From a virus (lineage: Duplodnaviria > Heunggongvirae > Uroviricota > Caudoviricetes): DNA of 40,212 nucleotides. Shown here in pieces: positions 377 through 40,212 of the stretch. Position 1 is the first letter of the stretch. The number at the start of each line of letters is the position of its first letter. Location: IMG/VR virus record IMGVR_UViG_2541047498_000018; one strand, given 5' to 3'. A program made the translations under genes and the position numbers. Under the pieces are notes generated by a model. It was not told the origin of the DNA and did no database searches. It saw only the letters and a list, made by a program, of their open reading frames with translations.

Positions 377-490
377 TGCCGTTTCCCTGAGTGAGGGAAT
401 CATTCAGCTTTCGTTCCCGAAAAACACACATTTATTTGTTATTTAAGGAGTTATCTCATGAAAACCGTTTCTCAGAATATATAGCGCGGC

Positions 491-562
491 GATTTTTTTG
501 ATACCGATTTGCATTTCATTTGATACCGCTGAAAAACGCCGATACGCAACTTATTTGATACT
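491..562. repeat. Right-end (attR-side) transposase-binding repeat array, three closely spaced TTTGATAC(C/T) sites
   Basis: TTGATACC at 498-505, TCATTTGATACC at 516-527, TTATTTGATACT at 551-562. The same motif occurs inverted at the other prophage end. Tight clustering resembles Mu R1-R3. Confidence 0.6.
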
Positions 563-607
563 AAATCGGCGCTTTTCTTTTGAGTTTTAGAATGAGTTTT
601 TAAGCGC

Positions 608-1345
608 TCATTCACTCTCTTTCAAACCAGTTTTAACTGTTTGTGGTTTTGGGTAAGGCTGGACTTTGAATAGCTTTGTGTTGAGGCGTTTTCTGGCCCT
701 CTTGTTCAGAAACCGGATGTAACGAAACTGTCGGAACTTATGAACACTGGCTCTGTCAATATTAGCCCTCAGATGTTCACCTCGTTGTCCGCCTCGTTTA
801 ATGGCATTCCTGCAAATCTCGTGATACCACTCGCCATCAAGTTCATAGAATATTGATTCATGGCTGCCTACATAATCAAAATTGCTTGCCTGATACACGA
901 CACCAAGACAGCCACAACGCTCATCTGCAAACGACTGAACCCACTGTACCTGCGGATAAAGCTGCCTGATTAGCTTGAGCGCGTAACTGATTGCCCTTGA
1001 TTCGGAGTTTCTCGGCATACAGTCATGCAGCCATAGCCGGTTAAGCTCCATATATTCTCGGTTCTGCGTACCCGTTACGACGCGTGCACCACTGTTTGGG
1101 TTAAGGGCGTAACCCCATTGCATTACGCCAACAAGTTCCCGTTCTGAAAATATGCCCAGATGAAGGTAGGAGTTATTTACGAAACGGTGGCTGTAATGTT
1201 TATTGACGATGACCAGTCTGGCCAGCCAGCAACTTATTGTCTCAACCCGCAACTCACGGGAGCCATAACCAACGATATTGTCGTTATAGCGAATAAGTTC
1301 AGGCGTGCTGATGATTCGGGATGTGACTTGCTTTCTGTTCCCCAC
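608..1345 (-). CDS. mom: DNA modification protein Mom (adenine modification, antirestriction)
   Basis: 245-aa ORF as the last gene before the prophage end. Its 5' end overlaps the 3' end of the upstream Com-like zinc-finger gene, as in Mu. True start may be an internal codon. Confidence 0.8.
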
Positions 1346-1499
1346 GACAGGATTTCCTTGTGTATGTGGGGTGCTCTGTGGCGCTCGGAGATGTGATTTG
1401 ATTGAGGGTTTTACAGCGCGGACATTTTACTTCCAGATAACTGAAACTGGCCCGTGCCAGTAGCTTATTGCAGTGTCGGCACCGTATGTTTCGATACAT
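1299..1499 (-). CDS. com: Com, zinc-finger translational activator of mom
   Basis: Translation [14 protein letters not shown]...EVKCPRCK has the C4 zinc-finger pattern of Mu Com. ATG at 1499 is preceded by AGGAGG 9 nt upstream on the minus strand. The track ORF starts further upstream at a TTG at 1544. Confidence 0.85.
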
Positions 1500-1546
1500 G
1501 ACCGCATAACCTCCTGCTTTGTTGTTGATGCCTTTCTCATGCAATC

Positions 1547-1685
1547 GATCGACAAAAACGATCGATTCGATTTGTTTAATTGATACAACAAATAGATTGA
1601 AAAGTCATCAACAATGATTCAGGGAGGTGATTATTTACTTAAAGAAAACGAAGAGTTAGGTGGTGAAAACGATCATAAAATGATC
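1547..1685 (-). promoter_or_regulatory. Upstream regulatory region of com-mom with a cluster of four GATC (Dam) sites
   Basis: GATC at 1547-1550, 1560-1563, 1671-1674 and 1682-1685, within about 190 bp upstream of com. Mu Pmom is known to be controlled by Dam methylation of upstream GATC sites (OxyR binding) and by C protein. Confidence 0.5.
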
Positions 1686-1771
1686 ATTTTATTGACTTTT
1701 TATACAGTGAAGGTAGGATCACGCGTATATGTAGTATGTTTCAAATCAACAGGATACTACATAAAAGTGAA

Positions 1772-1799
1772 ACCCAGCATAGCTGGAACTATGCTGGGT
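1772..1799 (-). terminator. Candidate rho-independent terminator for minus-strand transcription leaving the cargo module
   Basis: Perfect 11-bp inverted repeat ACCCAGCATAG / CTATGCTGGGT with a 6-nt loop. On the minus strand it is followed by TTCACTTTTAT. Confidence 0.4.
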
Positions 1800-2116
1800 C
1801 AATCTGTAAAAACTTGCATCAATGCTTTACTTCGAGCTCGTGGCGTATCCTATGATATTCCCCGGTCTCCTGTAAAGCAGAGATGCATAAAAAGGAGATC
1901 TTTATCATGGATGAAAGAGCCTGTTTGCCCTGCCTGTAAGACTCCCTTACAGCTCATCTATCGCCGTTCTCGATCTCAAAATGGCAAGACATACAAACCC
2001 AAAAATGCTTCCTGTTTCAGGATGCTGATATGTCCTGCCTGTTCTCCCAGGAGGGAAAATACACAAAACGTGCATTAACAAACTCACCCGGCAGGGAAAC
2101 CTGCCGGTCGGTATTG

Positions 2117-2362
2117 TTACATCATAGTACCGTCAGTTCCGGGCTGAACCGGCTCTGGTTGCTCTACGGGTTGAGGATCATTTTCCGTGCTGTTTTCAGC
2201 CGGAGAACGGCCAACCATTCGGGCCAGCACTTCATCAACATATGCGTCGATTTGTGCCTCAAAATCCTTGCGAACCTGCGCCTTCAGCACGCGGTTCACT
2301 TCTTCAGAATAAAGTGCCTGTTTGACAAGCTCTTCAGTAACCGTGCCTTTAATCTCTGGCAT
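2117..2362 (-). CDS. Hypothetical protein (81 aa, acidic, Pro/Glu-rich C-terminus), cargo module
   Basis: ORF co-oriented with and downstream of the esterase gene. No family recognised. Confidence 0.4.
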   Translation of the reverse strand: MPEIKGTVTEELVKQALYSEEVNRVLKAQVRKDFEAQIDAYVDEVLARMVGRSPAENSTENDPQPVEQPEPVQPGTDGTMM

Positions 2363-2397
2363 GAATATTCTCCTTTTGCAGGTATATTGCCCCGTTA

Positions 2398-2580
2398 TCA
2401 GAGCGGGGTCGGGTCGTTTGGGGATGACGGTGCCTGTGCTGTTTTACTGAGTTTTTCAGCTGCCGCATCATCAATTTTACGGCGAATATAATTTCTGATG
2501 ACCTTATAACCACCGCTCACCAGATATAACGCACTGACCACAGCGCAGAAATAAAGCAGCATTGTATGAACGAATGTCAT
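2398..2580 (-). CDS. Hypothetical small membrane protein (60 aa), cargo module
   Basis: N-terminal hydrophobic segment LLYFCAVVSALYLVSGGY followed by a basic stretch. Co-oriented within the cargo module. Confidence 0.4.
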   Translation of the reverse strand: MTFVHTMLLYFCAVVSALYLVSGGYKVIRNYIRRKIDDAAAEKLSKTAQAPSSPNDPTPL

Positions 2581-2726
2581 ATAACCTTACCTTTGATATT
2601 GACTACATAATTCGTTATCGGGTAAAAACATCGAAGCGACTGATAACCACTCCTTCGGGAGTATTTTTATTTTCCTTTATGGGTTAGGTAGCTCCCGCCA
2701 GCCATATCATGACCGGCGGGATTTTT

Positions 2727-4766
2727 TTATTCTGTTACCGCTTTTTTCACTTCCACCACAATGCTGTCAATCAGCACCGGGTAAGTTGCATTTTTTGTGA
2801 TATCCGTTACGCGGAGTTTGTCCACCGGGAAAGTTCCTACTGGTGACTGCGTCAGGGTAAACGCGGCACCATCCTGACCATCAATAACCGGAATAACCTG
2901 AAGGCTGTTATTTCCTGCAAAACGGAAGGCCAGCGTATGCCATTCATTATCAAATGCACCAAAGGTTCCCAGTTTCTGGTTATTTGTTGCCACTTTTGCA
3001 TTGTGGTACATCACATTCAGGTCTTTTGCGTCTGTCTGGATGTAGAACGATGCCAGCAGATTATTCCCTGCATCCCCTGTCAGGGTGACACCCTGCGGCA
3101 GAGAGGAAACCGGCCAGTAAAGCCCCATGACATACTGGTTTGCCACCAGGTCGCCAGGTACTTTAAAACGACAACTGATTAAACCACCATTTTTCAGCAG
3201 TTCAGCACCAGTACCGGCATCATGATCCAGATACCAAGATGATTTACCTGTTTCCTTGGTCAGTTTCATTGCCTTACCACCTGTGCCTCCTGCATCACTG
3301 ATAATTTCAGCTTTACCGCCAGCCGGCTCCCAGCCCTGGGCTTTCAGATTTCCTTCTGACTCACTGACACGATAAGACAGCAGTGTTGTGGTTACTGCTT
3401 CAGTTTCTGAAGGTGACGGCACTGGTGCTTCAGTTTCAGAAGATGGAACATCGGCTTTTACTGTGGTTCGCCCCGCATGAGTCAGAACTGCCGTGGCCAG
3501 ACGGTCGGAAATAATCCCACGACGTGCCCATGAACTGAAATGGCTGGCCCGGTCCGCAGATGTCCAGGTGGCGGCACTGTTACGCCACGTTGAGCCGTAA
3601 TAACCAATGGATTCAATATCCGGGTCTTCTGCCGGATTGTTGGTGGGTACATTCGCGTCATTTTCATCTGTCATTAATGGAACGAAATGAATGTTTTTAT
3701 CTGTTTTGTTTTTGTAGCCGCCATAGATTGCCTGGTATGCCGGTTCATTTTTCTGTTTCCAGAAATACGTGGTATCGCCACAAATCCACGGAACGCCAGC
3801 AGCACTGCCACCGGTACACTGTTCCGCCTGTTCAGCCAGGTCTGCGCGGAATTTTTCCACCATCGCCAGAAACAGCGCGGAATGCTCCGTCGGCTTCGCA
3901 TCAATATCAAACTCGCCCTGCATCCACACCACAGCAAGCAGGCGGTTTTTCGGGTTCTTCGCCAGTGCCGCTTTTGTCCGGCTGATTAAGTCCTTATACA
4001 GCGGCTTATCCACACCCCAGCGGGCTGAGTCCTCTGAAGCACCCGTGCTGTCACTGTACGTGCCGTCAGCACCCGCCGTGAATGCAGAACCACCACGGCA
4101 GCAGGGAACCAGCAGAATCCCCGCATCTGCCGGAATAAACGGCAGCAGTTTTTTGGCAATGTGAAGCCCCTGACCCACGGTGCCATATTGCCCTTTAGCC
4201 ACATCCGCTTTCGGGTGATTTTTTCCACTCATATCCTGCACATCATGCAGACAGTGGTCGGCCAGAATGATGTCGTTATACTGACAGGCTTTACCTCCCG
4301 GCGTGACTGTACTGCGACGGGCTAACTGCATAATACGCGGTTCGGGGCGGTCATATGTCTCCGGCAGTGGCAGACCTTCACCGTAAGCCATACCGTTTGA
4401 CTGACCAGCAAGAACCACCACGTAATACCAGGAAGGGGAGCTGGAAGCAGTTTCATTTCCTGACGGACGGGTATGTGTTTCAGCATTATCCCAGTCTGAC
4501 GGTTCAGCAGTACCGGCAACATCAGCACTTAACGGAATGACCGCACCAATACCCGCTCCGGTAATTTCCACACTCGGATCACCGGATACTGGCCTTACCC
4601 ACAGGCAATCCCGTGTATTAAAACTGATGAGACAGTCAGCAAATGTCATTCCTCCTTTTGTTTCGGCCGGAGGAAAGGGAGCCTCAAGAAATGCCGCTGT
4701 ACCACCGGAAACTTTAACAGTAAAGTTTCCGGGCATTGATGATAGTTGAACCCATTTGGACGTCAT
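2727..4766 (-). CDS. SASA/SGNH-family carbohydrate O-acetylesterase (NanS-p-like sialate O-acetylesterase) with C-terminal lectin-like domain
   Basis: 679-aa ORF with VVVLAGQSNGMAYGEG (the GQSN nucleophile motif of SASA esterases), a Ser/Thr/Pro/Glu-rich linker (SETEAPVPSPSETEA) and a roughly 250-aa C-terminal domain. This three-part layout matches prophage NanS-p esterases as recalled. Confidence 0.75.
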   Translation of the reverse strand: MTSKWVQLSSMPGNFTVKVSGGTAAFLEAPFPPAETKGGMTFADCLISFNTRDCLWVRPVSGDPSVEITGAGIGAVIPLSADVAGTAEPSDWDNAETHTRPSGNETASSSPSWYYVVVLAGQSNGMAYGEGLPLPETYDRPEPRIMQLARRSTVTPGGKACQYNDIILADHCLHDVQDMSGKNHPKADVAKGQYGTVGQGLHIAKKLLPFIPADAGILLVPCCRGGSAFTAGADGTYSDSTGASEDSARWGVDKPLYKDLISRTKAALAKNPKNRLLAVVWMQGEFDIDAKPTEHSALFLAMVEKFRADLAEQAEQCTGGSAAGVPWICGDTTYFWKQKNEPAYQAIYGGYKNKTDKNIHFVPLMTDENDANVPTNNPAEDPDIESIGYYGSTWRNSAATWTSADRASHFSSWARRGIISDRLATAVLTHAGRTTVKADVPSSETEAPVPSPSETEAVTTTLLSYRVSESEGNLKAQGWEPAGGKAEIISDAGGTGGKAMKLTKETGKSSWYLDHDAGTGAELLKNGGLISCRFKVPGDLVANQYVMGLYWPVSSLPQGVTLTGDAGNNLLASFYIQTDAKDLNVMYHNAKVATNNQKLGTFGAFDNEWHTLAFRFAGNNSLQVIPVIDGQDGAAFTLTQSPVGTFPVDKLRVTDITKNATYPVLIDSIVVEVKKAVTE

Positions 4767-4865
4767 AATAATCAGCCTGTTCCTGAATAAACTGAATTAT
4801 CATATCCACAGACCGATAAACGCCATTTTGCGTTAATTCAGTAAAGGCCCAACAAAGGGAGCGTC

Positions 4866-5426
4866 TTATTTTTCCGAAACGCTCGCAGGATAATAACGAT
4901 AAAGGGTTGAAAGGCCGATATCAAAAATAAGTGCCACCTGTCTTCGACTGACACCCCCGGCCAGTAAACGCCCGACCTGCTCGTATTGTTCCTGCGTGAG
5001 ACGACGGGGTCTGCCGCCGGTTCGTCCCCTTTCACGGGCAGCTGCAAGACCAGCCCGTGTCCGTTCGACAATTAATTCACGCTCCATTTCTGCCAGCGCA
5101 CCCATTATGTGAAAAAAGAAGCGCCCCATGGGGGTTGACGTATCAATGTTGTCAGTAAGACTACGAAAATTTATCCCCTGTTGCTGTAATTCATCTGTCA
5201 GCGCAACAAGGTGGCGCATACTGCGCCCCAGCCTGTCCAGTTTCCAGACCATCAGTGTGTCACCGGGTTTTAGTTTCTTCAGTGCCCGCTTCAGTCCCGG
5301 CCGCTGTGTCGTTTTACCACTCATTTTATCTTCAAAAATCTGCTCACATCCTGCACATTCCAGCGCATTTCTTTGTAAACCTGTGTTCTGGTCATTTGTT
5401 GATACGCGTATATAGCCAATCAGCAT
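4866..5426 (-). CDS. gin: Gin serine DNA invertase (Hin/Gin/Cin/Pin resolvase-invertase family)
   Basis: 186 aa starting MLIGYIRVSTNDQ (catalytic Ser) with the conserved DRLGRS and GRFFFH...ALAEMERE motifs and a C-terminal HTH. It lies next to a gix-like site and the invertible segment. Confidence 0.95.
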   Translation of the reverse strand: MLIGYIRVSTNDQNTGLQRNALECAGCEQIFEDKMSGKTTQRPGLKRALKKLKPGDTLMVWKLDRLGRSMRHLVALTDELQQQGINFRSLTDNIDTSTPMGRFFFHIMGALAEMERELIVERTRAGLAAARERGRTGGRPRRLTQEQYEQVGRLLAGGVSRRQVALIFDIGLSTLYRYYPASVSEK

Positions 5427-5480
5427 GTATTTACCTTCCTTAAAAAGAGGTGGAAAGGCCTTTTAAAGCAGATATACGGC

Positions 5481-5506
5481 ATCCCTGAAACCTCGGTTTA
5501 CGGGAT
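5481..5506. other. gix-like recombination site (left border of invertible segment)
   Basis: 26-bp imperfect palindrome ATCCCTGAAACC-TC-GGTTTACGGGAT, 55 bp upstream of the gin start. It resembles the Mu gix/hix family sequence as recalled. Confidence 0.7.
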
Positions 5507-5851
5507 ACTGTAAACAGGGCCGCGAATGCCCTGCCATCGAACGGAGCGGCTGTTGCAGCGAATAAACTCGCCACTCCAAGAAATATTAATGGTGTCCCAT
5601 TTGACGGAACGCAGGATATAAATATTACATCGGGGATGACGCAGTCTGTGGCTGACTCACGTTATGTTCAAAGCATTCGAAGAGGTTCAAGGTCAACGAT
5701 TGGAATGCAATATAATATTTTTGAGGTTCCTGACGGATGCGTACTTACAGGGCTTGATGTCGCTGGTGATGGTAATGCAACGGTAACCGCATATTATCGA
5801 CCTGTTCAGTTTCTGATAGATGGTTCGTGGAAAACAGCTTCCAGCGCATAA
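5501..5851 (+). CDS. Start-less alternative tail-fibre variable C-terminal cassette (S'v-like), expressed only after inversion
   Basis: Open frame directly inside the left gix site on the plus strand. It is homologous to the C-terminal part of S and has no start codon of its own upstream (TGA at 5486 in frame). Confidence 0.7.
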   Translation, partial: RDTVNRAANALPSNGAAVAANKLATPRNINGVPFDGTQDINITSGMTQSVADSRYVQSIRRGSRSTIGMQYNIFEVPDGCVLTGLDVAGDGNATVTAYYRPVQFLIDGSWKTASSA

Positions 5852-5930
5852 AAGTGCAGTAGTTCAAAAAACAGATTATCTGAATAAATATATGATGATT
5901 TTGTCTTTTCAACAAAAACAAGGTGAAATA

Positions 5931-6452
5931 ATGGAGCTTATTAACGTAAAACGATATTACCCGGAACACAAACCCTATGGTGAGGATGTTCAGTATTTCC
6001 AGAGTGAGGACGGAAGGGATTTTTATGAATCTATCCCGCTTTTCACAAAGAAATACAAACTCTGTATTTCGCCTGTAACGGGTATTATCTGCTCTGTTGC
6101 TGAAGATGTCTCTGCTTTATATCCGGCAGGTTTTACTGTTGTTGAAGTGGACGAACTGCCGGAAGGTGTGAATATTGACGGTAACTGGCAGTTTTCTGAT
6201 GGCCTGATATCAAAGGTGCCGGTAAACTGGAAGACGGTTGCTGAAAAGCGCCGCTCATCGCTGCTCCAGGAAGCCAACGAAACTGTGGATGACTGGAAAA
6301 CGGAATTAAAACTGGACATGATTAGCGATGAAAATAAATTACAGCTGACGCGCTGGATGGCGTATATCCGACAGCTTAAAGAAATGCACTTTAATGATAT
6401 TGCCAGTGAGGGGCATTACCAGGCGATTCCCTGGCCGGAAAAACCGGAATAA
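5931..6452 (+). CDS. Tail fibre assembly protein (U'/Tfa family)
   Basis: ATG at 5931 preceded by AAGGTGA. Contains SEDGRDFY near the N-terminus and a W.AY...L...I.WPE.P C-terminus typical of Tfa/U proteins. Co-oriented with the S'v cassette. Confidence 0.8.
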   Translation: MELINVKRYYPEHKPYGEDVQYFQSEDGRDFYESIPLFTKKYKLCISPVTGIICSVAEDVSALYPAGFTVVEVDELPEGVNIDGNWQFSDGLISKVPVNWKTVAEKRRSSLLQEANETVDDWKTELKLDMISDENKLQLTRWMAYIRQLKEMHFNDIASEGHYQAIPWPEKPE

Positions 6453-6486
6453 TTCAGAGGGTGCATTCAGCACCCTTTTCTGTGGT

Positions 6487-7398
6487 TTACACTGAACTTA
6501 CCGTTCTCCAGGCATTATTAATATAAATCTGAACCGGGCGATAATAGACCCCACCGATATTGTCCGCAGACCGGGAGCCGGTTTCCTGCACGTTAATTCC
6601 GGAAAGCATACAACCGGAAGGTGCGCTGTAATTCCATGACATTTCATTGCCTCCGGGTGAATGATAGCTCTGTGCTCCAAGCTGAACATTCTGTACATAC
6701 CGGCCATCTGCGGTTGACTGCGTCATTCCTGACGTGATGTTGATATCCAGCGTTCCGTCAAAAGGAACACCATTAATATTTCTTGGGGTGGCGAGTCTGT
6801 TTGCTGCCACGGCGGTTCCACCCGATGGCAGGGCATCAGCAGCCTTATTTACCGTTTCCCGTAAACCAACGTTATCGATAAAAGCGCCTTTATCCGGAAT
6901 GTCTGCGCCGTTCTGCTCCCTGCGCAGGTAACGGTTATCACCTTCGCTTTTGCTGTAAACATCCAGATTATTACGGGCGGTTCCCGCATTCTCCAGGTCG
7001 GCAAGGTTCTGATCCTTCGCCAGAGCATTAACGTCACCGGGACCAAGACTGTTTTTTGTGGCAAGCGCCCCAAGACCAAGATAACCACGGGCAAGACGCT
7101 GGGCTTCCGCACCGGCATCAGCAATTTCTTTCAGGTTGTTTTTCCGGGAAAAGGCATTCGCAGCGATAATGGCTTTAATGGACAGCGTAAGCTGGTTTAA
7201 CTGCGCCTTATCCGGCTGAATACTGGCTTCAGCCAGAATATTCAGCAGTTCGGCCTGGAGAATATTCAGCCAGTCCTGACCAATCCAGCTGATACCTTTT
7301 TGTCCGTCACCTTCGGTAAACCAGGTGGTGGTATTACTCTGCGCCGGTGCCAGCGCAGGCATATTCGCCACGCCGGAATTATTATCAACATGAAACAT
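6487..7398 (-). CDS. S: Tail fibre protein S (constant N-terminal part plus currently fused variable C-terminal part Sv)
   Basis: Likely start is the ATG at 7398 (MFHVDNN...), which overlaps the stop of the upstream gene as TAATG. The gene crosses the right gix site, and its C-terminal roughly 125 aa lie inside the invertible segment. Confidence 0.8.
   Translation of the reverse strand: MFHVDNNSGVANMPALAPAQSNTTTWFTEGDGQKGISWIGQDWLNILQAELLNILAEASIQPDKAQLNQLTLSIKAIIAANAFSRKNNLKEIADAGAEAQRLARGYLGLGALATKNSLGPGDVNALAKDQNLADLENAGTARNNLDVYSKSEGDNRYLRREQNGADIPDKGAFIDNVGLRETVNKAADALPSGGTAVAANRLATPRNINGVPFDGTLDINITSGMTQSTADGRYVQNVQLGAQSYHSPGGNEMSWNYSAPSGCMLSGINVQETGSRSADNIGGVYYRPVQIYINNAWRTVSSV
6856..6881. 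other. gix-like recombination site (right border of invertible segment, inside S)
   Basis: TTCCCGTAAACCAACGTTATCGATAA, about 21 of 26 positions matching the Mu gix sequence as recalled, in inverted orientation to the left site. It encodes IDNVGLRE within S. Confidence 0.65.
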
Positions 7399-7958
7399 TA
7401 AATAGTCTCCTCTTCGTGACTGTTTGCATATACGTAAATAAACGTCTGCCATGCAGGCTTATAACGGTTCAGAATACATTCCAGCGCACCGCCTTCATAA
7501 ATACGCAGCGGCGTGAGAATATCATCCAGCACATTCATATTCCGGTAGCCGGTTTCACTGTTAATCGTGACAATACTGACCCACTGTGAATCCGGTGATG
7601 GCTGAATATCTATTTCATAACCAAACTCTGCCGCAAACCGGATATAAAATTCACGGTTAAGAGAGGGTTTCATCCGGTATTTATTCCCGGCATAACGCTG
7701 ACGCTCCTGAATGGTTGCGCCGGTCATATCACATTCCGGTAACCCCAGATAACGCTCCCAGTCTTCCAGCAGCAGACGGGATGAATCAGGAAAACGTTCT
7801 GCCAGCATCTGGTTACCGGTCCAGGAAACACGCTCCGTGGAATGACTGAGGCCCAGGCACAAAGCCGCAAGAACGGATGACGGCCGCTTATCCCATGCCA
7901 GCCCGTCAGGCAGCAACTGCAACAGGGCACGCTGATGCGGGGTCAGGGTTACAGCCAT
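7398..7958 (-). CDS. Baseplate/tail protein (Mu gp48-like, DUF2313 family)
   Basis: 186-aa ORF immediately upstream of S and downstream of the baseplate J-like gene, at the Mu gp48 position and size. Confidence 0.6.
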   Translation of the reverse strand: MAVTLTPHQRALLQLLPDGLAWDKRPSSVLAALCLGLSHSTERVSWTGNQMLAERFPDSSRLLLEDWERYLGLPECDMTGATIQERQRYAGNKYRMKPSLNREFYIRFAAEFGYEIDIQPSPDSQWVSIVTINSETGYRNMNVLDDILTPLRIYEGGALECILNRYKPAWQTFIYVYANSHEEETI

Positions 7959-9034
7959 GTGATTTCCCCCACGGTCAGCAACTCTGTATCTCCGGCCATC
8001 ACGGACTTCAGCGGGCTGCGAACTTCAAAATCCTCCAGTCCTTTCACCCCTGCAACAGCCCGCCAGAATGATGAAGGCAATACAAGTCCACCCGGCCGCG
8101 ATTCGTTATAAAGCAGGTCCGTTAATGCCTGTTTTACGGCAGCCTGATTTTCCGGCGTTTTGGGTACAATCCTGATCTCAAACGCCACCGGCTTATTGGT
8201 CAGCTTAAACACGCTGATTGTCGGCCCAAGTGGCTGACCAACGGGCTGGCCCGTCGCCGGATCATCATGACTGCGGATATAATCCGCCACCCGCTTCACA
8301 TCACCTTCTCCGGGGAAAATGTCAGGGTTATTATCCTGAACAAAAGTCACACCAACACTACCCGCCTCAGGCCATTCAGGCTTACACCATGCCCGCGTCA
8401 CGCCCGGTACTTCCCGTGCCCAGCGTTCAAAATCATACTGTGTTCCCCCTGATGGCGGGTTCTGTACCCGGAATACCAGCCTGGACAGCAACTCCGGCAC
8501 CGTTTCCACATCCGCACCACCGGTGAGTCCCGTGCCGGTGACCGTGGCTGTCTGGTTGATGCCCGCCTGTGGCGTGATAAAGGACAGGCGGGTTCCGGTC
8601 GGGGTATTTCCAGCGCGCCCCGCACTTTCCGCCTCCACATTAACATTCAGTGTTCCGGCTTTTCCGGTCGCAGAGCCGGTGATGCGGTACACAACACCAT
8701 CGCTTCGCTGAAGGAGTACGCCTTCCGTGATCCCTGCATCCGTGGTCAGCATCAGTTGTACCGGTCCGTCAGCGCGGGAAGCCGGTTTACGGATGACACC
8801 CCAGAATGCGCAGTGTTTCAGGAGTTCGGCTTCATCAGCTTCTGTCGGAATTATCTGCCGGGAGATCCAGGCCAGATGTTCATGCTCCTGTGCTGACAGA
8901 CCCGCCAGTGCATACGCAATGGCATTCAGGGTGGTTTCATTCACGCCCGGCTGCGAACCGGGCAGGCGCTGGCTGATATCCTGTTGTGTCTGTGTGATCA
9001 GTTGCGCCAGTGGTAAGGGCTGATAAGGCATCAT
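7949..9034 (-). CDS. Baseplate J-like protein (Mu gp47-like)
   Basis: 361-aa ORF in the baseplate block, with the size and position of Mu gp47 / P2 gpJ-family proteins. Confidence 0.7.
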   Translation of the reverse strand: MMPYQPLPLAQLITQTQQDISQRLPGSQPGVNETTLNAIAYALAGLSAQEHEHLAWISRQIIPTEADEAELLKHCAFWGVIRKPASRADGPVQLMLTTDAGITEGVLLQRSDGVVYRITGSATGKAGTLNVNVEAESAGRAGNTPTGTRLSFITPQAGINQTATVTGTGLTGGADVETVPELLSRLVFRVQNPPSGGTQYDFERWAREVPGVTRAWCKPEWPEAGSVGVTFVQDNNPDIFPGEGDVKRVADYIRSHDDPATGQPVGQPLGPTISVFKLTNKPVAFEIRIVPKTPENQAAVKQALTDLLYNESRPGGLVLPSSFWRAVAGVKGLEDFEVRSPLKSVMAGDTELLTVGEITWL

Positions 9035-9468
9035 TCCCCCTTCATATCAGCATAAAAAATCATCGGATGTCTGCTTCCGTCCGGCAGGGTGATTTTCACG
9101 GAAAGCGAAAGGCGAGCATGCCCCACACGCATGGCATGACATACCACGGATGTGGCAGCACCGCTTTTATGCAGCCACGCCAGCGCTTCATCAGCATAGG
9201 CCTGTGCACGGCTGACCACGGAGGACAGCGTCTTTTCACGGCTTAACAGCCAGAGACGGGAGCCAACGGGGCGCTCCCGGAAACTGTCTCCCCACCATCC
9301 CCGACGGTCACGGGTGCCGTCAGGGATTTCATCGGAATCCAGCGCCCGCCTGTCCGTAAACAGTGAAATAATGACCGCAGTCAGCAGGCTGTTATCCGTC
9401 AGAAGATCTGCGCCGTTCAGTTGCAGGGAACCGCAACCCTGATCCCAGACGACAGCAATATCAGCCAT
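9031..9468 (-). CDS. Baseplate protein (Mu gp46-like)
   Basis: Internal ATG at 9468 (MADIAVVWDQ...) chosen because the track ORF start at 9681 would overlap the upstream gene by over 200 nt. About 145 aa. Confidence 0.55.
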   Translation of the reverse strand: MADIAVVWDQGCGSLQLNGADLLTDNSLLTAVIISLFTDRRALDSDEIPDGTRDRRGWWGDSFRERPVGSRLWLLSREKTLSSVVSRAQAYADEALAWLHKSGAATSVVCHAMRVGHARLSLSVKITLPDGSRHPMIFYADMKGE

Positions 9469-10075
9469 TCTCTGGTCCTCCCGTTTTGCTGCCTTCACCG
9501 TTATCGTGATGCACATGACCTGAATAGGTGATCCCGGCAATAACCGCTTCGGACATCGTGAACGTCCCCTGTGATCTTCCGGTGCCGTCAATGGACACAT
9601 TGCCTTTGACATGCAGGTTCTTATCCACTGTGACATTACCGGTAAAGTGAGCCTCCGGTGTATCCACCTGAACACCTTCATCGGCGTAAATCTCCAGCGT
9701 CTTACAGGTCACAATGATCCGGCCGTTCTTTGTCAGACGTATACGGTGCCCCTCATGGTGATACACGCCGGTATCTCCGGCGGTAAGTCCGGTCGGGCGA
9801 CTGCGGCGGTCTTCCACCACAAGCACCACGGCCTGATCCCGTTGTCCGCCAGCACAGGCCAGAAAAACTTCCGCACCAGGCAGGGGGACGCTGATTTGCC
9901 CGTACTGCTGGGGGCGTTCAACGTCATCAAAGGTTTCACCATCCATACCGGTGATTTGCACATTCTGGATTTTCAGCGTGTCCGTTGTGCCGGTCAGTAC
10001 ACCACGCCCGAACAGCAGACGAACACCCCGCATCACGGGGGCCAGAAGGCGGCTGATGACTTCGTCATTCATCAT
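9461..10075 (-). CDS. Baseplate spike/assembly protein (Mu gp45-like)
   Basis: 204-aa ORF between the gp44-like and gp46-like genes, with small overlaps to both neighbours. Confidence 0.6.
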   Translation of the reverse strand: MMNDEVISRLLAPVMRGVRLLFGRGVLTGTTDTLKIQNVQITGMDGETFDDVERPQQYGQISVPLPGAEVFLACAGGQRDQAVVLVVEDRRSRPTGLTAGDTGVYHHEGHRIRLTKNGRIIVTCKTLEIYADEGVQVDTPEAHFTGNVTVDKNLHVKGNVSIDGTGRSQGTFTMSEAVIAGITYSGHVHHDNGEGSKTGGPENG

Positions 10076-14584: not shown

Positions 14585-14710
14585 ACTTACTGCTTCGTTC
14601 TGATGATTTTTTCTGTCTGTCGGCAGTGCCGGTAAAGTTGCGACAGGGGGAGGTTAAGCGCCCATTCCGGACCGCTTTTTGTCACCATCCCCAGGATAAT
14701 TGCCGCTTCT

Positions 14711-15567: not shown

Positions 15568-15575
15568 GCCTTACC

Positions 15576-18668: not shown

Positions 18669-18711
18669 ATTTGCCCTCCGCAGGGGCCGGGCCGTAAGCC
18701 CGGCTCACCGT

Positions 18712-30570: not shown

Positions 30571-30582
30571 TCACCTGCCTGT

Positions 30583-31807: not shown

Positions 31808-31810
31808 GCA

Positions 31811-32859: not shown

Positions 32860-32862
32860 GAA

Positions 32863-33405: not shown

Positions 33406-33502
33406 ATATCCTGTTCCTTATTTTCAGTTTACAGGCGCAGGCAGTCCCCTGACGCGAGCGCCATACTTAAAACGATGTGATATTTAAAGATTTAATGCGG
33501 TG

Positions 33503-34033: not shown

Positions 34034-34044
34034 TTTGTTTTTCC

Positions 34045-34338: not shown

Positions 34339-34342
34339 GGAA

Positions 34343-34893: not shown

Positions 34894-34894
34894 C

Positions 34895-35161: not shown

Positions 35162-35389
35162 TTAGCTGACTTGTTTCGCACCAACAGAACGGCATATTCC
35201 GCTGTAAACGTCTGTCGCACCTTCGCGATCAAGTCCGGCAGATATCACCATTCGTGTGCGGTCATTAAATTCAAAAAGTAAATCGCCACATTCTTTATTT
35301 TCGGCCAGTGAAATCACCTTCACGTTATCGAAATTAACCAGGTAAAAGCGTCCGTAAATATCAGGAATATTAAATACCGCCATAATCAC
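35162..35389 (-). CDS. Small early protein immediately after B (position of Mu kil)
   Basis: 75-aa ORF whose start overlaps the B stop. Assigned by position and size only. Confidence 0.35.
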   Translation of the reverse strand: MIMAVFNIPDIYGRFYLVNFDNVKVISLAENKECGDLLFEFNDRTRMVISAGLDREGATDVYSGICRSVGAKQVS

Positions 35390-36318
35390 ACCTGTGAGAG
35401 TAATTCAGGGTTGGTATAAACCTCTTTAAAGGCCGCATTAATATGTTTTTCTGTCAGCGCCGCGCCTTCACCGCTGGCGGTGAGCCACGCCTGGTTAAGC
35501 GTATGTGTCAGAACGCGTAACGCTCCCGGCTTTTCAGCGATAGCCTGCATGACGGCCAGCTCGGCCTCACCACTGATCCCCCACGCCCTGGCAATGGCCA
35601 GCACATCCGCCTTTTTGGCCTTGCGAAGTTGTTTTGTACGGGCAAGACGGCTGAACAGGCGCGATAAATCATCAAAGGCGCGGCGTCCACCTTTAAACAA
35701 TCCGCGCGGGTTACCAATAAGCACCATCCCGATCCCCGTGGCGTCCTGAATTGCCCGGAGTTGCTCCAGACCGTCAATACCCAGATGATCCGCCTCATCC
35801 ACAATCACCAGTCCACGCGTTCCCATCAGGCGACGGCGGATGGCGCGGGATAATGCCCCTTTGTTCGCGCGGGTGTAATCAATCCCCAGCGCATCGGCCA
35901 GCTCCAGCAGACACTCCGTGACGCTGGAGTGCGCGGGTGACAGGGTGATCATCCAGGTGTTTGGTTGCTCCTGGCAGTAATTACGGGCAGTGGCCGTTTT
36001 ACCCACACCCGGTACGCCCACAATAACGTTAATACAGCCCATCAGACGAACCGCCTGAAACAGTGCGCGCAGCTCCTGGACTGTCTGCGTTTCCACAAAC
36101 TGCGGCGGTTCCGGCAGTGCGCTTTGTTTATTCCAGTTTTCATACCAGGAACGCAGGGAAGCAGCCACAGCGGCGTTATCGCCTTTATATTTCCCCTTGC
36201 GGAAAGCCGATAATGTGCCGTCGGAAATTCCCGCCTCTCTGGCGATGGCATACTGCGTCAGTACGCCGCCATCAATAAGTTCATCAATGGTCTTGATTAC
36301 ATCGTTAATATCAGTCAT
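35386..36318 (-). CDS. B: MuB-like AAA+ ATPase (target DNA activator of transposition)
   Basis: 310 aa with an N-terminal HTH region and Walker A motif GVPGVGKT. Immediately downstream of the transposase gene. Confidence 0.9.
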   Translation of the reverse strand: MTDINDVIKTIDELIDGGVLTQYAIAREAGISDGTLSAFRKGKYKGDNAAVAASLRSWYENWNKQSALPEPPQFVETQTVQELRALFQAVRLMGCINVIVGVPGVGKTATARNYCQEQPNTWMITLSPAHSSVTECLLELADALGIDYTRANKGALSRAIRRRLMGTRGLVIVDEADHLGIDGLEQLRAIQDATGIGMVLIGNPRGLFKGGRRAFDDLSRLFSRLARTKQLRKAKKADVLAIARAWGISGEAELAVMQAIAEKPGALRVLTHTLNQAWLTASGEGAALTEKHINAAFKEVYTNPELLSQV

Positions 36319-36389
36319 ATTATTAACCTCTCATTTGATACCTTGTTTAATCAAATAACCTGAGTCGCCGCTCGGGTTATTTTTTTATT

Positions 36390-38480
36390 TCAGGCCAGCG
36401 GGTCATTTTCTTTTAATTTCGCTTCCAGCAACTGCAATCCCCGCTGGAAATTACGCTCGTATTCTTCATCAGGTTCATCGTCAGCGACCGGTTGCTGAAC
36501 GGTCACCGTATTACCCACAGGGCGGTATATGTTTTCCAGCCAGGGCTCCTGCGGCTTGTGCTCCAGCACGTTGACAACCTCATCCTCGGCATCACGGATT
36601 TTTTCCTCTGCGCGTTTACGCATGCCTTTAAGGCGTTGCTGCTGTTTGTAGTATTCCGCGCTGACCGGGAAGGCTTCGCGTTTATTGCCGTCCCATACCG
36701 CCTCGCAAATCACGCTGCCATCCAGGCGACGTACGGTAATTCGTTCGGCATCATGAATGTCATAGCTGATAAGCACCTTACGGCCATGCTCGTCACGCAG
36801 CTCGGGCGCGTAGTAAATATTATTCAGCCAGCGTATTTCACAGCGTCTTACAGGGCGTTCCACCATCGGCCGGAACATATCCCGCAGCTCAACATCGGAC
36901 AGCCATTCAATTTCCGTGTCCTCTTCCGCCAGGCGTTTTTTTCTGAACTCCGCCGGGCTGTAATGCTTGCCGTTCGGCTTCACCGGTAATTCATCGTGCG
37001 GCCGGTTGTTGTACCACTCAACACCGTCACGAATGGCATCAATCAGTTCAGACCAGGACGGTAAATCACGCATCGCTGACTGCTGCCGGGCGTTCAGCCG
37101 TTTGCCCTGTTGCAGGGCAGTAAATGCCGAGCGTAAATCGCGGTTGGTTTTGCGTAACGTCTCGCGATCTGCACCTTTCCCGAAATAGGTGCGGTATTTA
37201 CGGGCTATGCGCATCGGTAATGTGCGGTTAAGCCGTTCGATAATGCCTCGTCCCTGCGGATTACCGGCAATCCCGGTCGGGTGATTAATCCCCAGTCGCG
37301 GCAGTATCCCCACAACCTCCTTATCCAGGATGTCGGCGGTTTCCCCGGAGCCGTTATCCGAGTAATACAGAAACGGTTTGCCGTGATGGCGAATGCCGTG
37401 CTGTATGGCACCGGCTACGGCGAAAACATTTTCAGCCAGGTCAAGGCTCCAGCCCACCACAAAGCGCGTGCCACCGTCGATAACAAAGGTCACTTCCGGT
37501 GCAAATGGCCGACCGTGAACCGGGTGTGCGCATTTCAGCTTCATGCCGTGACCGTCACCAATCCAGACATAATTCACCGGCATTCTGGACCAGTCGCGGC
37601 GCGTGAATCCCTCAAGCTGGCGGTATTCACTGCCGGTCACCCGGCCTTTTTGTTTCACCACTTCCGGCAGTTTCTTCATTGCGCGGCGAATGGTGTCATA
37701 AGACGGCATGATATCGAGCATATAAGGCTCATCAGCGTGCCGGTGCTGCCATTCAGCGACAAAATCCTCGTAAGCCTCGGTCATTGGTCGGCCGTTTGAC
37801 TGGCGATACTGCGCCAGAAATTCGGGCAGCCAGTTAATATCTTCGGCTTTTATTTCCTGGCGCTTACCCGGTGCCAGTAAAAGCAGGCGTTCAGCGGCGT
37901 TCTGCGCCTTGTTAAAGGCCGCAATCCAGCGTTTCAGCGTGATTTCACTTAACGCGCGGCTGTTTCCCTTTTTGGCGTTCGCCGTCTCAACCATTGCCAC
38001 AATGCGCTCGTCCAGCTGCGAACGTGCCAGGTTGTCAACGATAAACCGGATAGCCTTCGCACAGCTGAAACCAGGTTGTTGCGCGACTTTCAGAACTTCG
38101 CTGACGATCGCGATTCGTGCATCAGCCACCTGGCGCTGGTTTTCAGTCAGGGCATTAAGGCGTTCGACCATCAGTTGTGGTGATCCGCGATATGCCTCCA
38201 CCGCATCAACCACGGCAGGCGAGCGTCTGGCCTTTGTCACCACTGGAGCCGGTGATTCATCGACTTTTTGAGTCATCAGTTGCAGGGCGTAGCGTTCACG
38301 TAATGCCTGCTGCGTCACTTCAGGTAAACAGTCGATGCTGTATTCAGTTGCTTTAGAGCCTGAGCGACGACGGGAACAACAGCTTTTCCCTTGTACGTAA
38401 CGTTGTAATGCCTGGCGAATACCTTTTGTTGTAGCAGGCATTCCGGGCGCGCCAATCAGTTCTTTTGCAATGACATACAT
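36390..38480 (-). CDS. A: MuA-like DDE transposase
   Basis: 696-aa ORF immediately after ner, at the Mu A position and size (Mu A is 663 aa). Contains a DGHG motif consistent with a DDE catalytic core. Confidence 0.93.
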   Translation of the reverse strand: MYVIAKELIGAPGMPATTKGIRQALQRYVQGKSCCSRRRSGSKATEYSIDCLPEVTQQALRERYALQLMTQKVDESPAPVVTKARRSPAVVDAVEAYRGSPQLMVERLNALTENQRQVADARIAIVSEVLKVAQQPGFSCAKAIRFIVDNLARSQLDERIVAMVETANAKKGNSRALSEITLKRWIAAFNKAQNAAERLLLLAPGKRQEIKAEDINWLPEFLAQYRQSNGRPMTEAYEDFVAEWQHRHADEPYMLDIMPSYDTIRRAMKKLPEVVKQKGRVTGSEYRQLEGFTRRDWSRMPVNYVWIGDGHGMKLKCAHPVHGRPFAPEVTFVIDGGTRFVVGWSLDLAENVFAVAGAIQHGIRHHGKPFLYYSDNGSGETADILDKEVVGILPRLGINHPTGIAGNPQGRGIIERLNRTLPMRIARKYRTYFGKGADRETLRKTNRDLRSAFTALQQGKRLNARQQSAMRDLPSWSELIDAIRDGVEWYNNRPHDELPVKPNGKHYSPAEFRKKRLAEEDTEIEWLSDVELRDMFRPMVERPVRRCEIRWLNNIYYAPELRDEHGRKVLISYDIHDAERITVRRLDGSVICEAVWDGNKREAFPVSAEYYKQQQRLKGMRKRAEEKIRDAEDEVVNVLEHKPQEPWLENIYRPVGNTVTVQQPVADDEPDEEYERNFQRGLQLLEAKLKENDPLA

Positions 38481-38481
38481 A

Positions 38482-38730
38482 TCATGACGCCTTTCTCATA
38501 TAGCTCTTAACCTGGTATCGACTGGGCCAGATTTCTTCAGGCGATACCCCAAGAGCATCAGCAATTATTTGCTGATACGGTCGGCAAGGAGTACGTAATA
38601 CGCTTTTCAGCGAATCCCTGCTGTAACCAGCCTTTAAAGATAAAGAGCGCAGTGATAAGCCAGCCATGTGTAAGCGCGCCTTGATGATTTCAGGCGGCCA
38701 ATCGTGATCTGAAACTTCTCTTCTACTCAT
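38482..38730 (-). CDS. ner: Ner-like DNA-binding regulator (Ner/Nlp family)
   Basis: 82 aa with QIIADALGVSPEEIWPSRY, resembling the Mu Ner C-terminal region as recalled. Divergent from the repressor gene. Confidence 0.8.
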   Translation of the reverse strand: MSRREVSDHDWPPEIIKARLHMAGLSLRSLSLKAGYSRDSLKSVLRTPCRPYQQIIADALGVSPEEIWPSRYQVKSYMRKAS

Positions 38731-38897
38731 ACTTCCTCTATTCTAAAAAGTTACCCGCGCGGATATTCGTGCGGATATCTGTACGGGTAAATAATAGAAC
38801 AAACAAAAGAACCAAATCAAGGTATTTTGTTCTTTTTATTCTTTGCGGTGTTTTTGTTATTAATATCAATAAGATAAATACAAAGGAACCTGAGAGC
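38731..38897. promoter_or_regulatory. Divergent c / ner-A-B operator-promoter region (likely also the transpositional enhancer)
   Basis: 167-bp AT-rich intergenic region between divergent genes. Direct repeat GCGGATAT at 38777-38784 and 38790-38797; inverted repeat AAAAGAAC / GTTCTTTT at 38815-38822 and 38829-38836. Confidence 0.55.
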
Positions 38898-39482
38898 ATG
38901 AACATGAAAAACAGTTCTTTTCTCGACGAAGGAAAAGAACCAGTGATCGAACGGATTTTTCGTCTTGCAGAGCGTTACAAATCGAGAAGTGAGGCGGCTA
39001 GAGCATGGGGAATAAACGTTCAGACATTGCAGAACTACTACAAAAGGAGAAACAATCAGCCGCCACCACAACCAAGAAAGCACCATCTCCAGAACATTGC
39101 AGAAAGAGAACATGTATCTATGGAGTGGCTAGTCAATGGTTATGGTGATGAGCCAGGCATGAAAAAAGAACCAATTGAACAAACAAAAAGAACAAAAAAA
39201 CAAAGAATTGATGATAGTGATTCCATCATCATGAGGGCGTGGGACTCGCTAACTTCATCTGAACAAGAGATTTTGTCCAACTTATTGATCAGAAAAGGGG
39301 CCGAACTACTAACCGTTTTGCTTGATACAGATATTCAAAAACTGCACTCATTGAGCGGAGTCAAAAGAGCACTAGCATTGAGTCTACAAGAGTTACCCGA
39401 TGATACTGTAAGAGAGATTTATGAAGAATGTGAAGCTAAGGTTAATCATTTAAATGTAACCCAGAAAAAGGCTGGTGCGTAA
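38898..39482 (+). CDS. c: Lysogeny repressor (c-like), HTH DNA-binding protein
   Basis: ATG at 38898 (MNMKNSS...). The track ORF starts 129 nt upstream and would run through the operator region. Divergent from ner-A-B at the prophage left end. HTH-like segment RSEAARAWGINVQTLQNYY. Confidence 0.7.
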   Translation: MNMKNSSFLDEGKEPVIERIFRLAERYKSRSEAARAWGINVQTLQNYYKRRNNQPPPQPRKHHLQNIAEREHVSMEWLVNGYGDEPGMKKEPIEQTKRTKKQRIDDSDSIIMRAWDSLTSSEQEILSNLLIRKGAELLTVLLDTDIQKLHSLSGVKRALALSLQELPDDTVREIYEECEAKVNHLNVTQKKAGA

Positions 39483-39572
39483 GGGAGTGGTGCAATTTTT
39501 GTGCTGTAGTACACTCCTTTAAAGACAATCTGGAGAAAAACGTTTTAAGCCTTTTTAAAGCCATTTTAAGCG

Positions 39573-39747
39573 TCAATCCGTAGTATCAAAAGTTTTGCCG
39601 ATTTTAGAATAAACGATTAATTATTGCACAATCGGTATCAAATAGACTTTAAGCGCTCATCCAGACATCACCTGTTTTATTTCAGTATCTTACAGGTGAT
39701 TTCACCTCCTTTCACTAAAACCCTCGTTGGTATCAAATGATTCACCT
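39573..39747. repeat. Left-end (attL-side) transposase-binding repeat array, three spaced GTATCAAA sites inverted relative to the other end
   Basis: AGTATCA at 39582-39588, GGTATCA at 39634-39640 and 39729-39735 (reverse complement of TTGATACC). Wide spacing resembles Mu L1-L3. The terminal site GGTATCAAATGATTCA resembles the Mu L1 core in reverse complement. Confidence 0.6.
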
Positions 39748-40212
39748 GGTTACAAATACCCCCACAATTTATTCAGCTACAACACCAGAGAATAATCCGC
39801 CTCAGTTGGTTGCCAGCCTCGTCCCTGATGAACAGCGCATCAGCTTCTGGCCGCAGCATTTTGGCCTCATTCCACAGTGGGTCACCCTGGAGCCCCGTGT
39901 CTTCGGCTGGATGGACCGTCTGTGCGAAGACTACTGCGGTGGTATCTGGAATCTGTACACCCTGAACAACGGCGGGGCATTTATGGCCCCCGAACCGGAT
40001 GATGATGATGACGAAACATGGGTACTGTTCAATGCCATGAACGGTAACCGCGCTGAAATGAGCCCGGAAGCCGCCGGTATTGCCGCCTGTCTGATGACGT
40101 ACAGCCATCATGCCTGTCGTACGGAGAATTATGCCATGACGGTCCATTATTACCGGTTGCGGGATTACGCCCTGCAGCATCCGGAAGGCAGCGCCATTAT
40201 GCGCATCATTGA
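39737..40212 (+). CDS. Partial CDS: antirestriction protein (KlcA/ArdB family, YfjX/YafX-like); 3' end beyond the window
   Basis: Plus-strand frame is open from the ATG at 39737 to the window end. Translation ...WPQHFGLIPQWVTLEPRVFGWMDRLCEDYCGGIWNLYTLNNGGAFMAPEPDDDDDETWVLFNAMNGNRAEMSPEAAGIAACLMTYSHHACRTENYAMTVHYYRLRDYALQHPEGSAIMRII matches CP4-type island antirestriction proteins as recalled. The in-frame ATG lies inside the terminal repeat, so the native start is uncertain. Confidence 0.7.
   Translation, partial: MIHLVTNTPTIYSATTPENNPPQLVASLVPDEQRISFWPQHFGLIPQWVTLEPRVFGWMDRLCEDYCGGIWNLYTLNNGGAFMAPEPDDDDDETWVLFNAMNGNRAEMSPEAAGIAACLMTYSHHACRTENYAMTVHYYRLRDYALQHPEGSAIMRII

Follow-up and report, generated by a model that had tools for sequence, protein, structure and literature searches.

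A Mu-like prophage of the Sp18 type occupies positions 480..39754 of the stretch of viral DNA analysed here (the window, 40,212 nucleotides). Very probably, this prophage entered a gene of the KlcA/ArdB type in an island probably of the CP4-44 type by DDE transposition, duplicating AATA and splitting the gene, which was probably inactivated. Such transposition into the antirestriction gene would have involved a target cut staggered by 4 nt, leaving AATA on both sides of the element.

The empty site and the exact ends of the prophage

An uninterrupted version of the site is present in E. coli CDC#03-98 (L003), which matches the joined flanks of the window (479 bp on the left, 458 bp on the right) at 99.8% over 933 bp. 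There, the sequence reads ...ATGAAAACCGTTTCTCAG-AATA-CCCCC..., with only one copy of AATA, whereas alignment shows that the window has AATA, then 39,275 bp, then AATA again. The prophage is therefore the 39,275 bp that are absent from the empty site, i.e., window 480..39754. The left flank is base-for-base equal to the empty site from 32 to 479, with mismatches only at window positions 4 and 31, and the right flank (39755-40212) is identical to it. The same ends emerge from comparison with other insertions: homology to eight of them begins exactly at 480 and stops exactly at 39754, and the terminal sequences TATAGCGCGGCG... and ...CACCTGGTTACA are invariant across nine independent insertions, each of which has a different 4-bp duplication.

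The features that define the insertion are:

1..376, plus strand: DUF932 island gene, 3′ part only, closed by a TGA stop at 374-376 (Pfam PF06067; its counterpart in the empty site, L003:5555-6376, carries the label 'DUF932 domain-containing protein')
377..457, plus strand: native island DNA between the DUF932 and antirestriction genes, matching the uninterrupted site throughout; mistaken in the earlier note for the phage end
476..479, no strand: left copy of the target-site duplication AATA (single in the empty site)
480..39754, minus strand: Sp18-type Mu-like prophage, genes running from right to left, with the c (left) end at 39754 and the S/mom (right) end at 480 (from the empty site, the shared termini and the PGAP gene content of a sister copy, L006)
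39755..39758, no strand: right copy of the target-site duplication AATA (empty-site alignment)

A different placing had been proposed in the earlier note, in which the prophage ran from about 380 or 386 to 39744, the antirestriction gene began at an ATG at 39737 within a terminal repeat, the insertion lay upstream of the gene or at its start, and the target-site duplication was an imperfect one of 5 bp (CCTGA at 386-390, CCTGG at 39745-39749). Two observations favour this model: the open frame has ATG 39737 as its first in-frame ATG, and the 8-mer GAATCATT occurs in inverted orientation at 397 (plus strand) and 39736 (minus strand). However, bases 380-479, including the native start codon, are present in the uninterrupted site, and the homology with the other insertions is bounded elsewhere, so that the proposed left and right ends were off by 100 bp and 10 bp, respectively. 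Of the two proposed copies, CCTGA belongs to the native intergenic island DNA and CCTGG to the phage; what was really duplicated is AATA, of 4 bp. As a terminal inverted repeat, the 8-mer is also to be discarded: because a third copy lies at 1613 (minus strand), it is a chance match, and it was probably this match that set the left end in the note. Alignment to an empty site, which was the check that the note itself had suggested, places the termini elsewhere and the start of the gene outside the element, the very outcome that it had named as contrary to its reading. The model is almost certainly wrong. Searching for a 5-bp duplication was bound to fail because the Sp18-type phage family makes one of 4 bp; when element starts at 480 or 481 and ends at 39753 or 39754 were tried in combination across all nine insertions, none gave 5 bp.

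The island

The DUF932 gene does end at 376, as was noted earlier, and is followed by a terminator-like hairpin at 387-407 within the native intergenic region. In the best-matching uninterrupted locus, the gene order is of the CP4-44 type: DUF932, antirestriction, yeeS (RadC/JAB), yeeT, cbeA, cbtA and yeeW, beside yeeA/sbmC/dacD. Of this gene order, the window shows the DUF932 and antirestriction genes alone. Per genome, the median number of places with a similar island is three, and the maximum is 15. This multiplicity would suit an indirect arrival, in which the prophage first entered another, paralogous island and its junctions later reached this copy through gene conversion or homologous recombination; the left flank does differ from the best empty site at the two positions given above. 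Against this, the insertion is clean and flanked by a duplication, and both flanks match one locus at 99.8%, so that a second event is unneeded. Indirect arrival is thus highly unlikely, and the identity of the structure would be unchanged either way.

Gene content of the prophage

The prophage is apparently complete. A DDE transposase with Mu-type domains adjoins a MuB-type AAA+ ATPase, which is a mark of Mu-like phages (saltoviruses), and a Mu-type late and morphogenesis module is present (Mor, Mu portal, gpT head, contractile tail, invertible fibre segment and Com/Mom, from Pfam, PHROG and PGAP). A full Mu-like gene set is also found in the PGAP annotation of L006, a 99.5%-identical copy. 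The recognition of a Mu-like prophage, made earlier from the sequence, is borne out by the transposase, MuB, Ner-like, repressor, Mu-type portal, Mom and invertase genes, and its placing in a CP4-type island is likewise supported. The main genes are:

608..1345, minus strand: Mom-family DNA modification gene (Pfam PF25680, E=4e-77)
about 1299-1499: Com-like gene, just upstream of the Mom gene (Com and Mom both annotated in L006)
4866..5426, minus strand: Gin-like DNA invertase (phrog_125, E=6e-95)
5820-7452: tail-fibre and tail-fibre-assembly genes (tail-fibre PHROGs), adjoining the invertase and forming an invertible host-range segment
35386..36318, minus strand: MuB-like AAA+ transposition ATPase (Pfam Phage-MuB_C, E=2.5e-25; AAA_22)
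36390..38480, minus strand: transposase of 696 aa, remotely MuA-like (Pfam Mu-transpos_C, 1.5e-17; HTH_Tnp_Mu_1, 6.9e-6; phrog_310, E=1e-212)
38482..38730, minus strand: Ner-like early regulator (Pfam HTH_35, E=2.5e-19)
38898..39482, plus strand: prophage repressor (phrog_3037, transcriptional repressor, E=4e-59; a 585-bp CDS lies at the equivalent place in L006)

The genome plan is shared with that of Mu: a repressor facing the left end, ner-A-B, Gam, Mor, lysis, head, contractile tail, an invertible fibre segment with its invertase, and com-mom at the right. The repressor has the same orientation as the c gene of Mu. However, pairwise sequence comparison hardly reveals the transposase as a homologue of MuA: none of the solved MuA structures matched it at E<=0.001, and matches appeared only at E=0.03-0.12 (the lowest being 4FCY, E=0.03). 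No high-identity (megablast) match to Mu DNA was found in either end region. With a similarity to MuA as remote as this, the biochemistry of Mu can be carried over to the prophage only by analogy.

Putative transposase sites at the ends

The asymmetric, Mu-like repeats that had been seen at the two ends hold up. The motif TTTGATAC has eight matches, where 0.85 would be expected (0/100 shuffles reach eight), and six of the eight are in the ends, three at 497-561 (plus strand) and three at 39583-39737 (minus strand). From either terminus, the motif begins 18 nt in. The two ends are:

480..561, plus strand: S (right, mom-proximal) end with terminus TATAGCGCGGCG; clustered putative sites TTTGATAC at 497-504, 519-526 and 554-561, and a degenerate GCCGATAC at 538-545 (motif scan)
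39583..39754, minus strand: c (left) end with terminus ...CACCTGGTTACA (read inward, TGTAACCAGG); spaced putative sites TTTGATAC at 39730-39737, 39635-39642 and 39583-39590 (motif scan)

At the motif level, the sites lie 19, 114 and 166 nt from the c end (22, 127 and 167 for the L end of Mu), and 19, 41 and 76 nt from the S end (22, 44 and 57 for the R end of Mu). These distances run closely parallel to those of Mu. Multiple putative transposase sites are spaced on the left and clustered on the right, as in Mu-like phages. There are three such motifs per end in both Mu and this prophage, and both have a left end that starts with TGTA; the differences are that the site core is CGAAA in Mu and TTTGATAC here, and that the third site of the S end is not inverted here.

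The termini of Mu are 5′-TG...CA-3′. In the present prophage, the c end starts with TG (TGTAACC), whereas the S end finishes ...GCGCTATA-3′, i.e., with TA rather than CA. This TA is invariant in nine of nine copies, in which the neighbouring host base varies. The length of the duplication is likewise constant, exactly 4 bp in all nine independent insertions (including that of Sp18 itself), compared with 5 bp for Mu. In the literature, Mu-like phages are recognized by a scar, the target-site duplication, with a length of 5 bp for Mu and 6 bp for B3 (PMC8705779). No statement of a 4-bp duplication, whether for Sp18-type phages or for other Mu-like ones, came up in a literature search; such a duplication is recorded only in the depositors' repeat_region annotations of LC727881 and LC727895.

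The split antirestriction gene

The protein encoded by the right flank belongs to the Antirestrict (ArdB-KlcA) family (Pfam PF03230, E=3.3e-35, 120.6 bits against a cut-off of 25), in agreement with its earlier description, and the gene of the uninterrupted site carries the RefSeq label 'antirestriction protein' (the activity itself is putative). In the uninterrupted strain, the coding sequence is L003:6458-6937, and its start corresponds to window position 458. The native start codon (458-460) and a ribosome-binding site read from the sequence (AAGGAG, 445-450, 7 nt upstream) both lie to the left of the prophage; hence the prophage is inside the coding sequence and not upstream of it. The insertion point is in the eighth codon, directly after nucleotide 22 of the coding sequence. 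Thus, the gene is split: the promoter region, the ribosome-binding site and the first seven codons are on the left, and codon 7 onward is 39.3 kb away on the right. The two parts are:

458..484, plus strand: antirestriction stump, with the native ATG at 458-460, seven native codons, and then across the junction to a phage TAG at 482-484, giving MKTVSQNI (the CDS L003:6458-6937 maps to 458; translation)
39737..40212, plus strand: chimeric open reading frame, ATG ATT CAC CTG GTT ACA (MIHLVT, 39737-39754), in frame with antirestriction codons 7 onward (from 39755) and extending 4 nt beyond the end of the window (translation; Pfam Antirestrict)

In the chimeric frame, MIHLVT replaces MKTVSQ, and the total length equals that of the native protein. 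As had been reported, the first in-frame ATG, at 39737-39739, lies within GGTATCAAATGATTCA; it follows a TAA at 39716-39718. The codon is phage DNA within the outermost transposase-site motif; it is in frame by accident and is not, as had been taken, the native start of the gene. The earlier proposal of a landing in the 5′ region of the gene stands, and the option of a landing directly upstream of it falls, since the native ATG is to the left of the prophage.

Expression of the right-hand fragment

From its sequence, the antirestriction gene would appear to have lost its function or to retain weak expression at most. The right-hand part could be expressed only via transcription that exits the c end of the phage, e.g., from the repressor gene, and ribosomes would need to use the in-frame ATG 39737 as the start. 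The repressor gene is transcribed towards the c end and therefore towards the downstream gene remnant, in the same orientation as the remnant and ending 272 bp upstream of it. On the plus strand of 38400-40212, no promoter-like or terminator-like sites were predicted, and the RNA of 39483-39760 folds no better than shuffled sequences (z=-1.15). In the antirestriction family, the first ~23 residues are variable and those from about residue 24 onward are nearly invariant, so the six swapped residues are in the least conserved part. Some expression of the chimeric frame is thus possible, because there is no predicted terminator from the repressor to the junction, the frame is of full length and the swapped residues are those least conserved.

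These observations could be read as a re-wiring of the gene, in which read-through from the repressor across the c end, with a start at ATG 39737, would yield a 159-aa antirestriction protein during lysogeny. However, no Shine-Dalgarno sequence precedes this ATG (the sequence upstream is CCCTCGTTGGTATCAA), in contrast to the AAGGAG 7 nt upstream of the native start, and an in-frame ATG arises by chance in one of three frames. In addition, an exact-sequence lookup, in which the C-terminal residue and the stop beyond the window were taken as in the uninterrupted site, found the chimeric protein absent from ~15 billion public proteins; thus, there is no sign that the arrangement has been kept or has spread. 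Re-wiring is accordingly unlikely. A wider form of the idea would make the Sp18-type c end a portable expression signal: a repressor transcript would exit through the terminator-free 272-bp end, and the ATG in the outermost transposase site would restart translation, so that production of a near-native antirestriction protein would be coupled to lysogeny. This, too, is quite improbable.

Mu insertions in coding sequences part a gene from its expression signals, and an open frame over the phage end can give a hybrid protein, as in Mud-type fusions. In comparison with these, the frame here reads outward from the c end and includes only six phage codons, by accident, and its expression is hypothetical. 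The interpretation adopted here is that of a split and probably inactive gene.

The Sp18 family and its insertion sites

A sister copy is L006, an Sp18-type prophage in creC of strain 2013C-3252, with 99.5-99.7% identity over 39,098 bp. Sp18 of E. coli O157:H7 Sakai has identical termini, the same gene order and the same length of duplication (4 bp), and further relatives of the Sp18 group in EHEC/STEC are Phi804-3 of FRIK804, Mu_JNE082796 and Mu_JNE122137. The sole difference from Sp18 and its relatives is the insertion site, apart from mosaic stretches relative to two CC119 copies, in which the tail/head region is partly mosaic (78-91% identity over window 1332-20243). Sp18 has been described as an intact Mu-like phage, the DNA of which is packaged and not circularized, with an invertible host-specificity region (PMC2669165). 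Related prophages occupy strain-specific sites at seemingly random loci (PMC2669165, PMC7430833, PMC10132054). The same c end was found at creC, lsrC, agaF, cah, DNA adjacent to recQ, sorM, Stx phages and other places, i.e., at many unrelated sites.

A search of 5,426 complete E. coli genomes did not find the exact junction. One candidate for the same junction, the single match with at least 80% coverage (H45), proved to be a different insertion, ~500 bp upstream in a related island. Since other Sp18-type prophages, at many loci, share 99.5-99.7% identity with the element, the finding is an ordinary one: the disruption of a gene by a prophage of an already known type.

Significance

In itself the finding matters little; it adds a single random insertion to those of a well-described family of EHEC prophages. 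The insertion has probably knocked out one copy of an antirestriction gene, of which most such genomes carry several paralogous copies. This prophage and similar ones can be annotated with exact coordinates from the native start codon, the duplication of 4 bp and the ends at 480 and 39754, and the case of ATG 39737 shows that an in-frame ATG beside the end of a mobile element should not be called as a gene start before comparison with an empty site. The consistent 4-bp duplications and the TA-3′ terminus could matter for studies of transposition mechanism and for prophage finders that seek a 5- or 6-bp scar.

Gene content and setting

According to the ORF listing and profile searches, the minus strand of the window encodes a Mu-type gene set that is complete. 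The proposal of the earlier note, that a Mu-like prophage has a CP4-type island as its site and an antirestriction gene as its neighbour, was borne out by this gene set and by the DUF932 and PF03230 flanks.

Features of the prophage and its flanks
374-376, stop codon of the DUF932 gene, whose 3' end forms the left flank
608-1345, minus, Mom (PF25680)
2727-4766, minus, 679-aa protein with a sialate O-acetylesterase (SASA) domain and DUF6645, between invertase and com/mom
4866-5426, minus, Gin-like invertase adjoining the tail-fibre genes (phrog_125)
22870-24468, minus, Mu-type portal (Portal_Mu)
35386-36318, minus, MuB-like ATPase (Phage-MuB_C)
36390-38480, minus, transposase, 696 aa (Mu-transpos_C, HTH_Tnp_Mu_1; phrog_310, 1e-212)
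38482-38730, minus, Ner-like regulator (HTH_35)
38898-39482, plus, repressor (phrog_3037, 4e-59)
right flank, ArdB/KlcA-family antirestriction gene (PF03230, 3.3e-35)

The transposase is a remote relative of MuA: in pairwise sequence comparison the solved MuA structures matched only at E=0.033 (4FCY), 0.063 (1TNS) and 0.12 (1BCM), and the Mu-specific N- and C-terminal domains were still found by Pfam. Locally (residues 363-426), retroviral integrase catalytic cores outscore the MuA structures (pairwise E about 1e-4). A 263-bp segment of the gene for the SASA protein (2738-3000) shares about 84% identity with genes of many Stx-converting phages, a likeness that suggests module exchange with lambdoid prophages.

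Insertion site and ends of the element

The two flanks were joined and searched against 5,426 complete E. coli genomes, which returned thousands of uninterrupted sites; the best of them, from O157-type strains, match at 99.8% over 933 bp. The gene order at the locus in strain CDC#03-98 is DUF932 - antirestriction - yeeS - yeeT - cbeA - cbtA - yeeW, with yeeA/sbmC/dacD adjoining; this is the CP4-44 position. Base by base, window 32-479 and 39755-40212 are identical to the uninterrupted site, and the only two substitutions across 1-479 are at 4 and 31. The uninterrupted site has a single AATA (...ATGAAAACCGTTTCTCAG AATA CCCCCACAATT...), whereas the window has AATA (476-479), 39,275 bp, and a second AATA (39755-39758). 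By this comparison the element is 480..39754, running from TATAGCGCGGCG... to ...CACCTGGTTACA. In LC727881 and LC727895, Mu-like phages inside Stx phages, homology begins and ends precisely at 480 and 39754, and their depositors annotate identical ends. The junction was seen in 0 of the 5,426 genomes, and the insertion is a rare and probably recent event.

The left end had previously been placed at about 380; however, 380-479 is native island DNA matching the uninterrupted site. That boundary probably came from the 8-mer GAATCATT, at 397 (+) and 39736 (-), which was rejected as a terminal inverted repeat and regarded as a chance match because a further copy lies at 1613. A terminator-like hairpin at 387-407 (CTGAGTGAGGGAATCATTCAG, then a T-rich tail), in the native DUF932-antirestriction intergenic region, includes this 8-mer; it is the 8-mer that resembles an inverted repeat of the c end (the left end of the prophage, at 39754). 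The duplication tentatively read from CCTGA (386-390) and CCTGG (39745-39749) does not hold either, since the former is island DNA and the latter phage DNA.

Target duplication, termini and end repeats

Nine independent insertions were compared: the window, two Stx-phage-borne copies (L004, L005), creC (L006), lsrC, a dprA/recQ-adjacent site and agaF (L007/L008, L009/L010, L011/L012), the DUF932 gene of strain 12089 (L013/L016) and sorM of Sakai (L017/L018). The duplication is exactly 4 bp in all nine (AATA, GATG, CTCT, CATA, GACA, AACA, ATCG, TTCG, TTTA), with the fifth base unmatched on either side in each. The target duplication is 5 bp in Mu and 6 bp in B3, and a 5/6-bp scar is treated as diagnostic of transposable prophages (PMC8705779). 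In the literature searched, no paper stating 4 bp for the Sp18-type lineage was found; it is recorded only in GenBank repeat_region annotations.

The c terminus (39743-39754) begins TGTAACC, and the S terminus (the right, mom-proximal end; 480-491) finishes ...GCGCTATA-3', that is, with TA. Canonical termini are TG...CA, whereas the Sp18-type S end is TA, constant in 9/9 copies while the neighbouring host base varies.

The motif TTTGATAC occurs eight times in the window (0.85 expected; 0/100 shuffles reach 8), six of the copies being in the ends. One of the remaining exact copies, at 36334-36341 (+), falls within the 71 bp that separate the transposase gene from the MuB-like gene; the other is at 19241-19248 (-).

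Distances (nt) from the corrected terminus to the base at which the core motif starts
Left / c end: Mu (core CGAAA) 22, 127, 167; Sp18-type element (core TTGATAC) 19, 114, 166
Right / S end: Mu 22, 44, inverted 57; Sp18-type element 19, 41, 76, plus a degenerate copy at about 60

The likeness to Mu L1-L3/R1-R3 noted earlier is well supported by spacing. The core motif is not that of Mu, and inversion of the third copy at the S end is absent. The outermost motif is equidistant from both termini, which gives independent support for the corrected ends.

The split antirestriction gene

The uninterrupted gene (RefSeq L003:6458-6937 in CDC#03-98; 159 aa) has its ATG at window 458-460, preceded by AAGGAG at 445-450, which puts the phage within the coding sequence, after nucleotide 22. 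The left stump reads ATG AAA ACC GTT TCT CAG AAT ATA TAG (MKTVSQNI-stop), and the right part retains codon 7 onward. The frame entering the right part from the phage end is open after TAA 39716-39718 and holds ATG 39737, so that a chimeric product, MIHLVT + NTPTIYS..., would equal in length the native MKTVSQ + NTPTIYS.... The in-frame ATG that the earlier note saw within GGTATCAAATGATTCA is present, but it is phage DNA overlapping the outermost putative transposase-site motif and not the start of the gene; the headline of a start codon inside the terminal repeat was wrong. Overall, the observation was confirmed in part and its interpretation supported in part.

No Shine-Dalgarno sequence precedes ATG 39737 (upstream: CCCTCGTTGGTATCAA), and no plus-strand promoter-like sites were predicted in 38400-40212. 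The repressor gene is directed outward and ends 272 bp upstream; between it and the right part, prediction gave no terminator-like site and no unusual RNA structure. The six swapped residues fall within the variable N-terminal region of about 23 residues, the rest of the protein being nearly invariant. The chimeric protein was not found among about 15 billion public proteins, a collection in which the native protein is present on at least 1000 contigs. From the sequence, inactivation of the antirestriction gene appears the likeliest outcome; weak read-through may instead express a functional chimera.

Relatives and significance

Over 39,098 of its 39,275 bp, the prophage shares 99.5-99.7% identity with the copy in creC of strain 2013C-3252, and its termini are those of Sp18 from O157 Sakai, the prototype. 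Compared with the Stx-phage-borne CC119 copies (L004/L005), the early region is 96-98% identical, whereas the structural-gene half is mosaic (1332-20243 at 78-91% identity) and the mom-proximal 480-1331 gave no alignment >300 bp.

The Sakai record (NC_002695.2) annotates Sp18 at 5040971..5079729. The common termini put it at 5040970..5079724, flanked on either side by a copy of the duplicated TAAA; the annotated feature is thus off by 1 nt at one end and takes in 5 host bases at the other.

Strain 12089 (L013:1676, L016; NZ_CP159875.1, about 659.6-698.3 kb) carries a second independent insertion of this phage type in an island of this kind, oriented as in the window, about 500 bp upstream, in the DUF932 gene, with the duplication TTCG. 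A mild preference for the target may account for this, or simply chance, as each genome has several copies of the island.

Sp18 has been described as a Mu-like phage that is intact, does not circularise, is packaged efficiently and has an invertible segment for host range (PMC2669165), and its relatives occupy strain-specific loci, also within other mobile elements (PMC7430833, PMC10132054). The structure described here is ordinary and of an already known kind: a known phage at a new insertion site, the splitting of a gene being an ordinary consequence.
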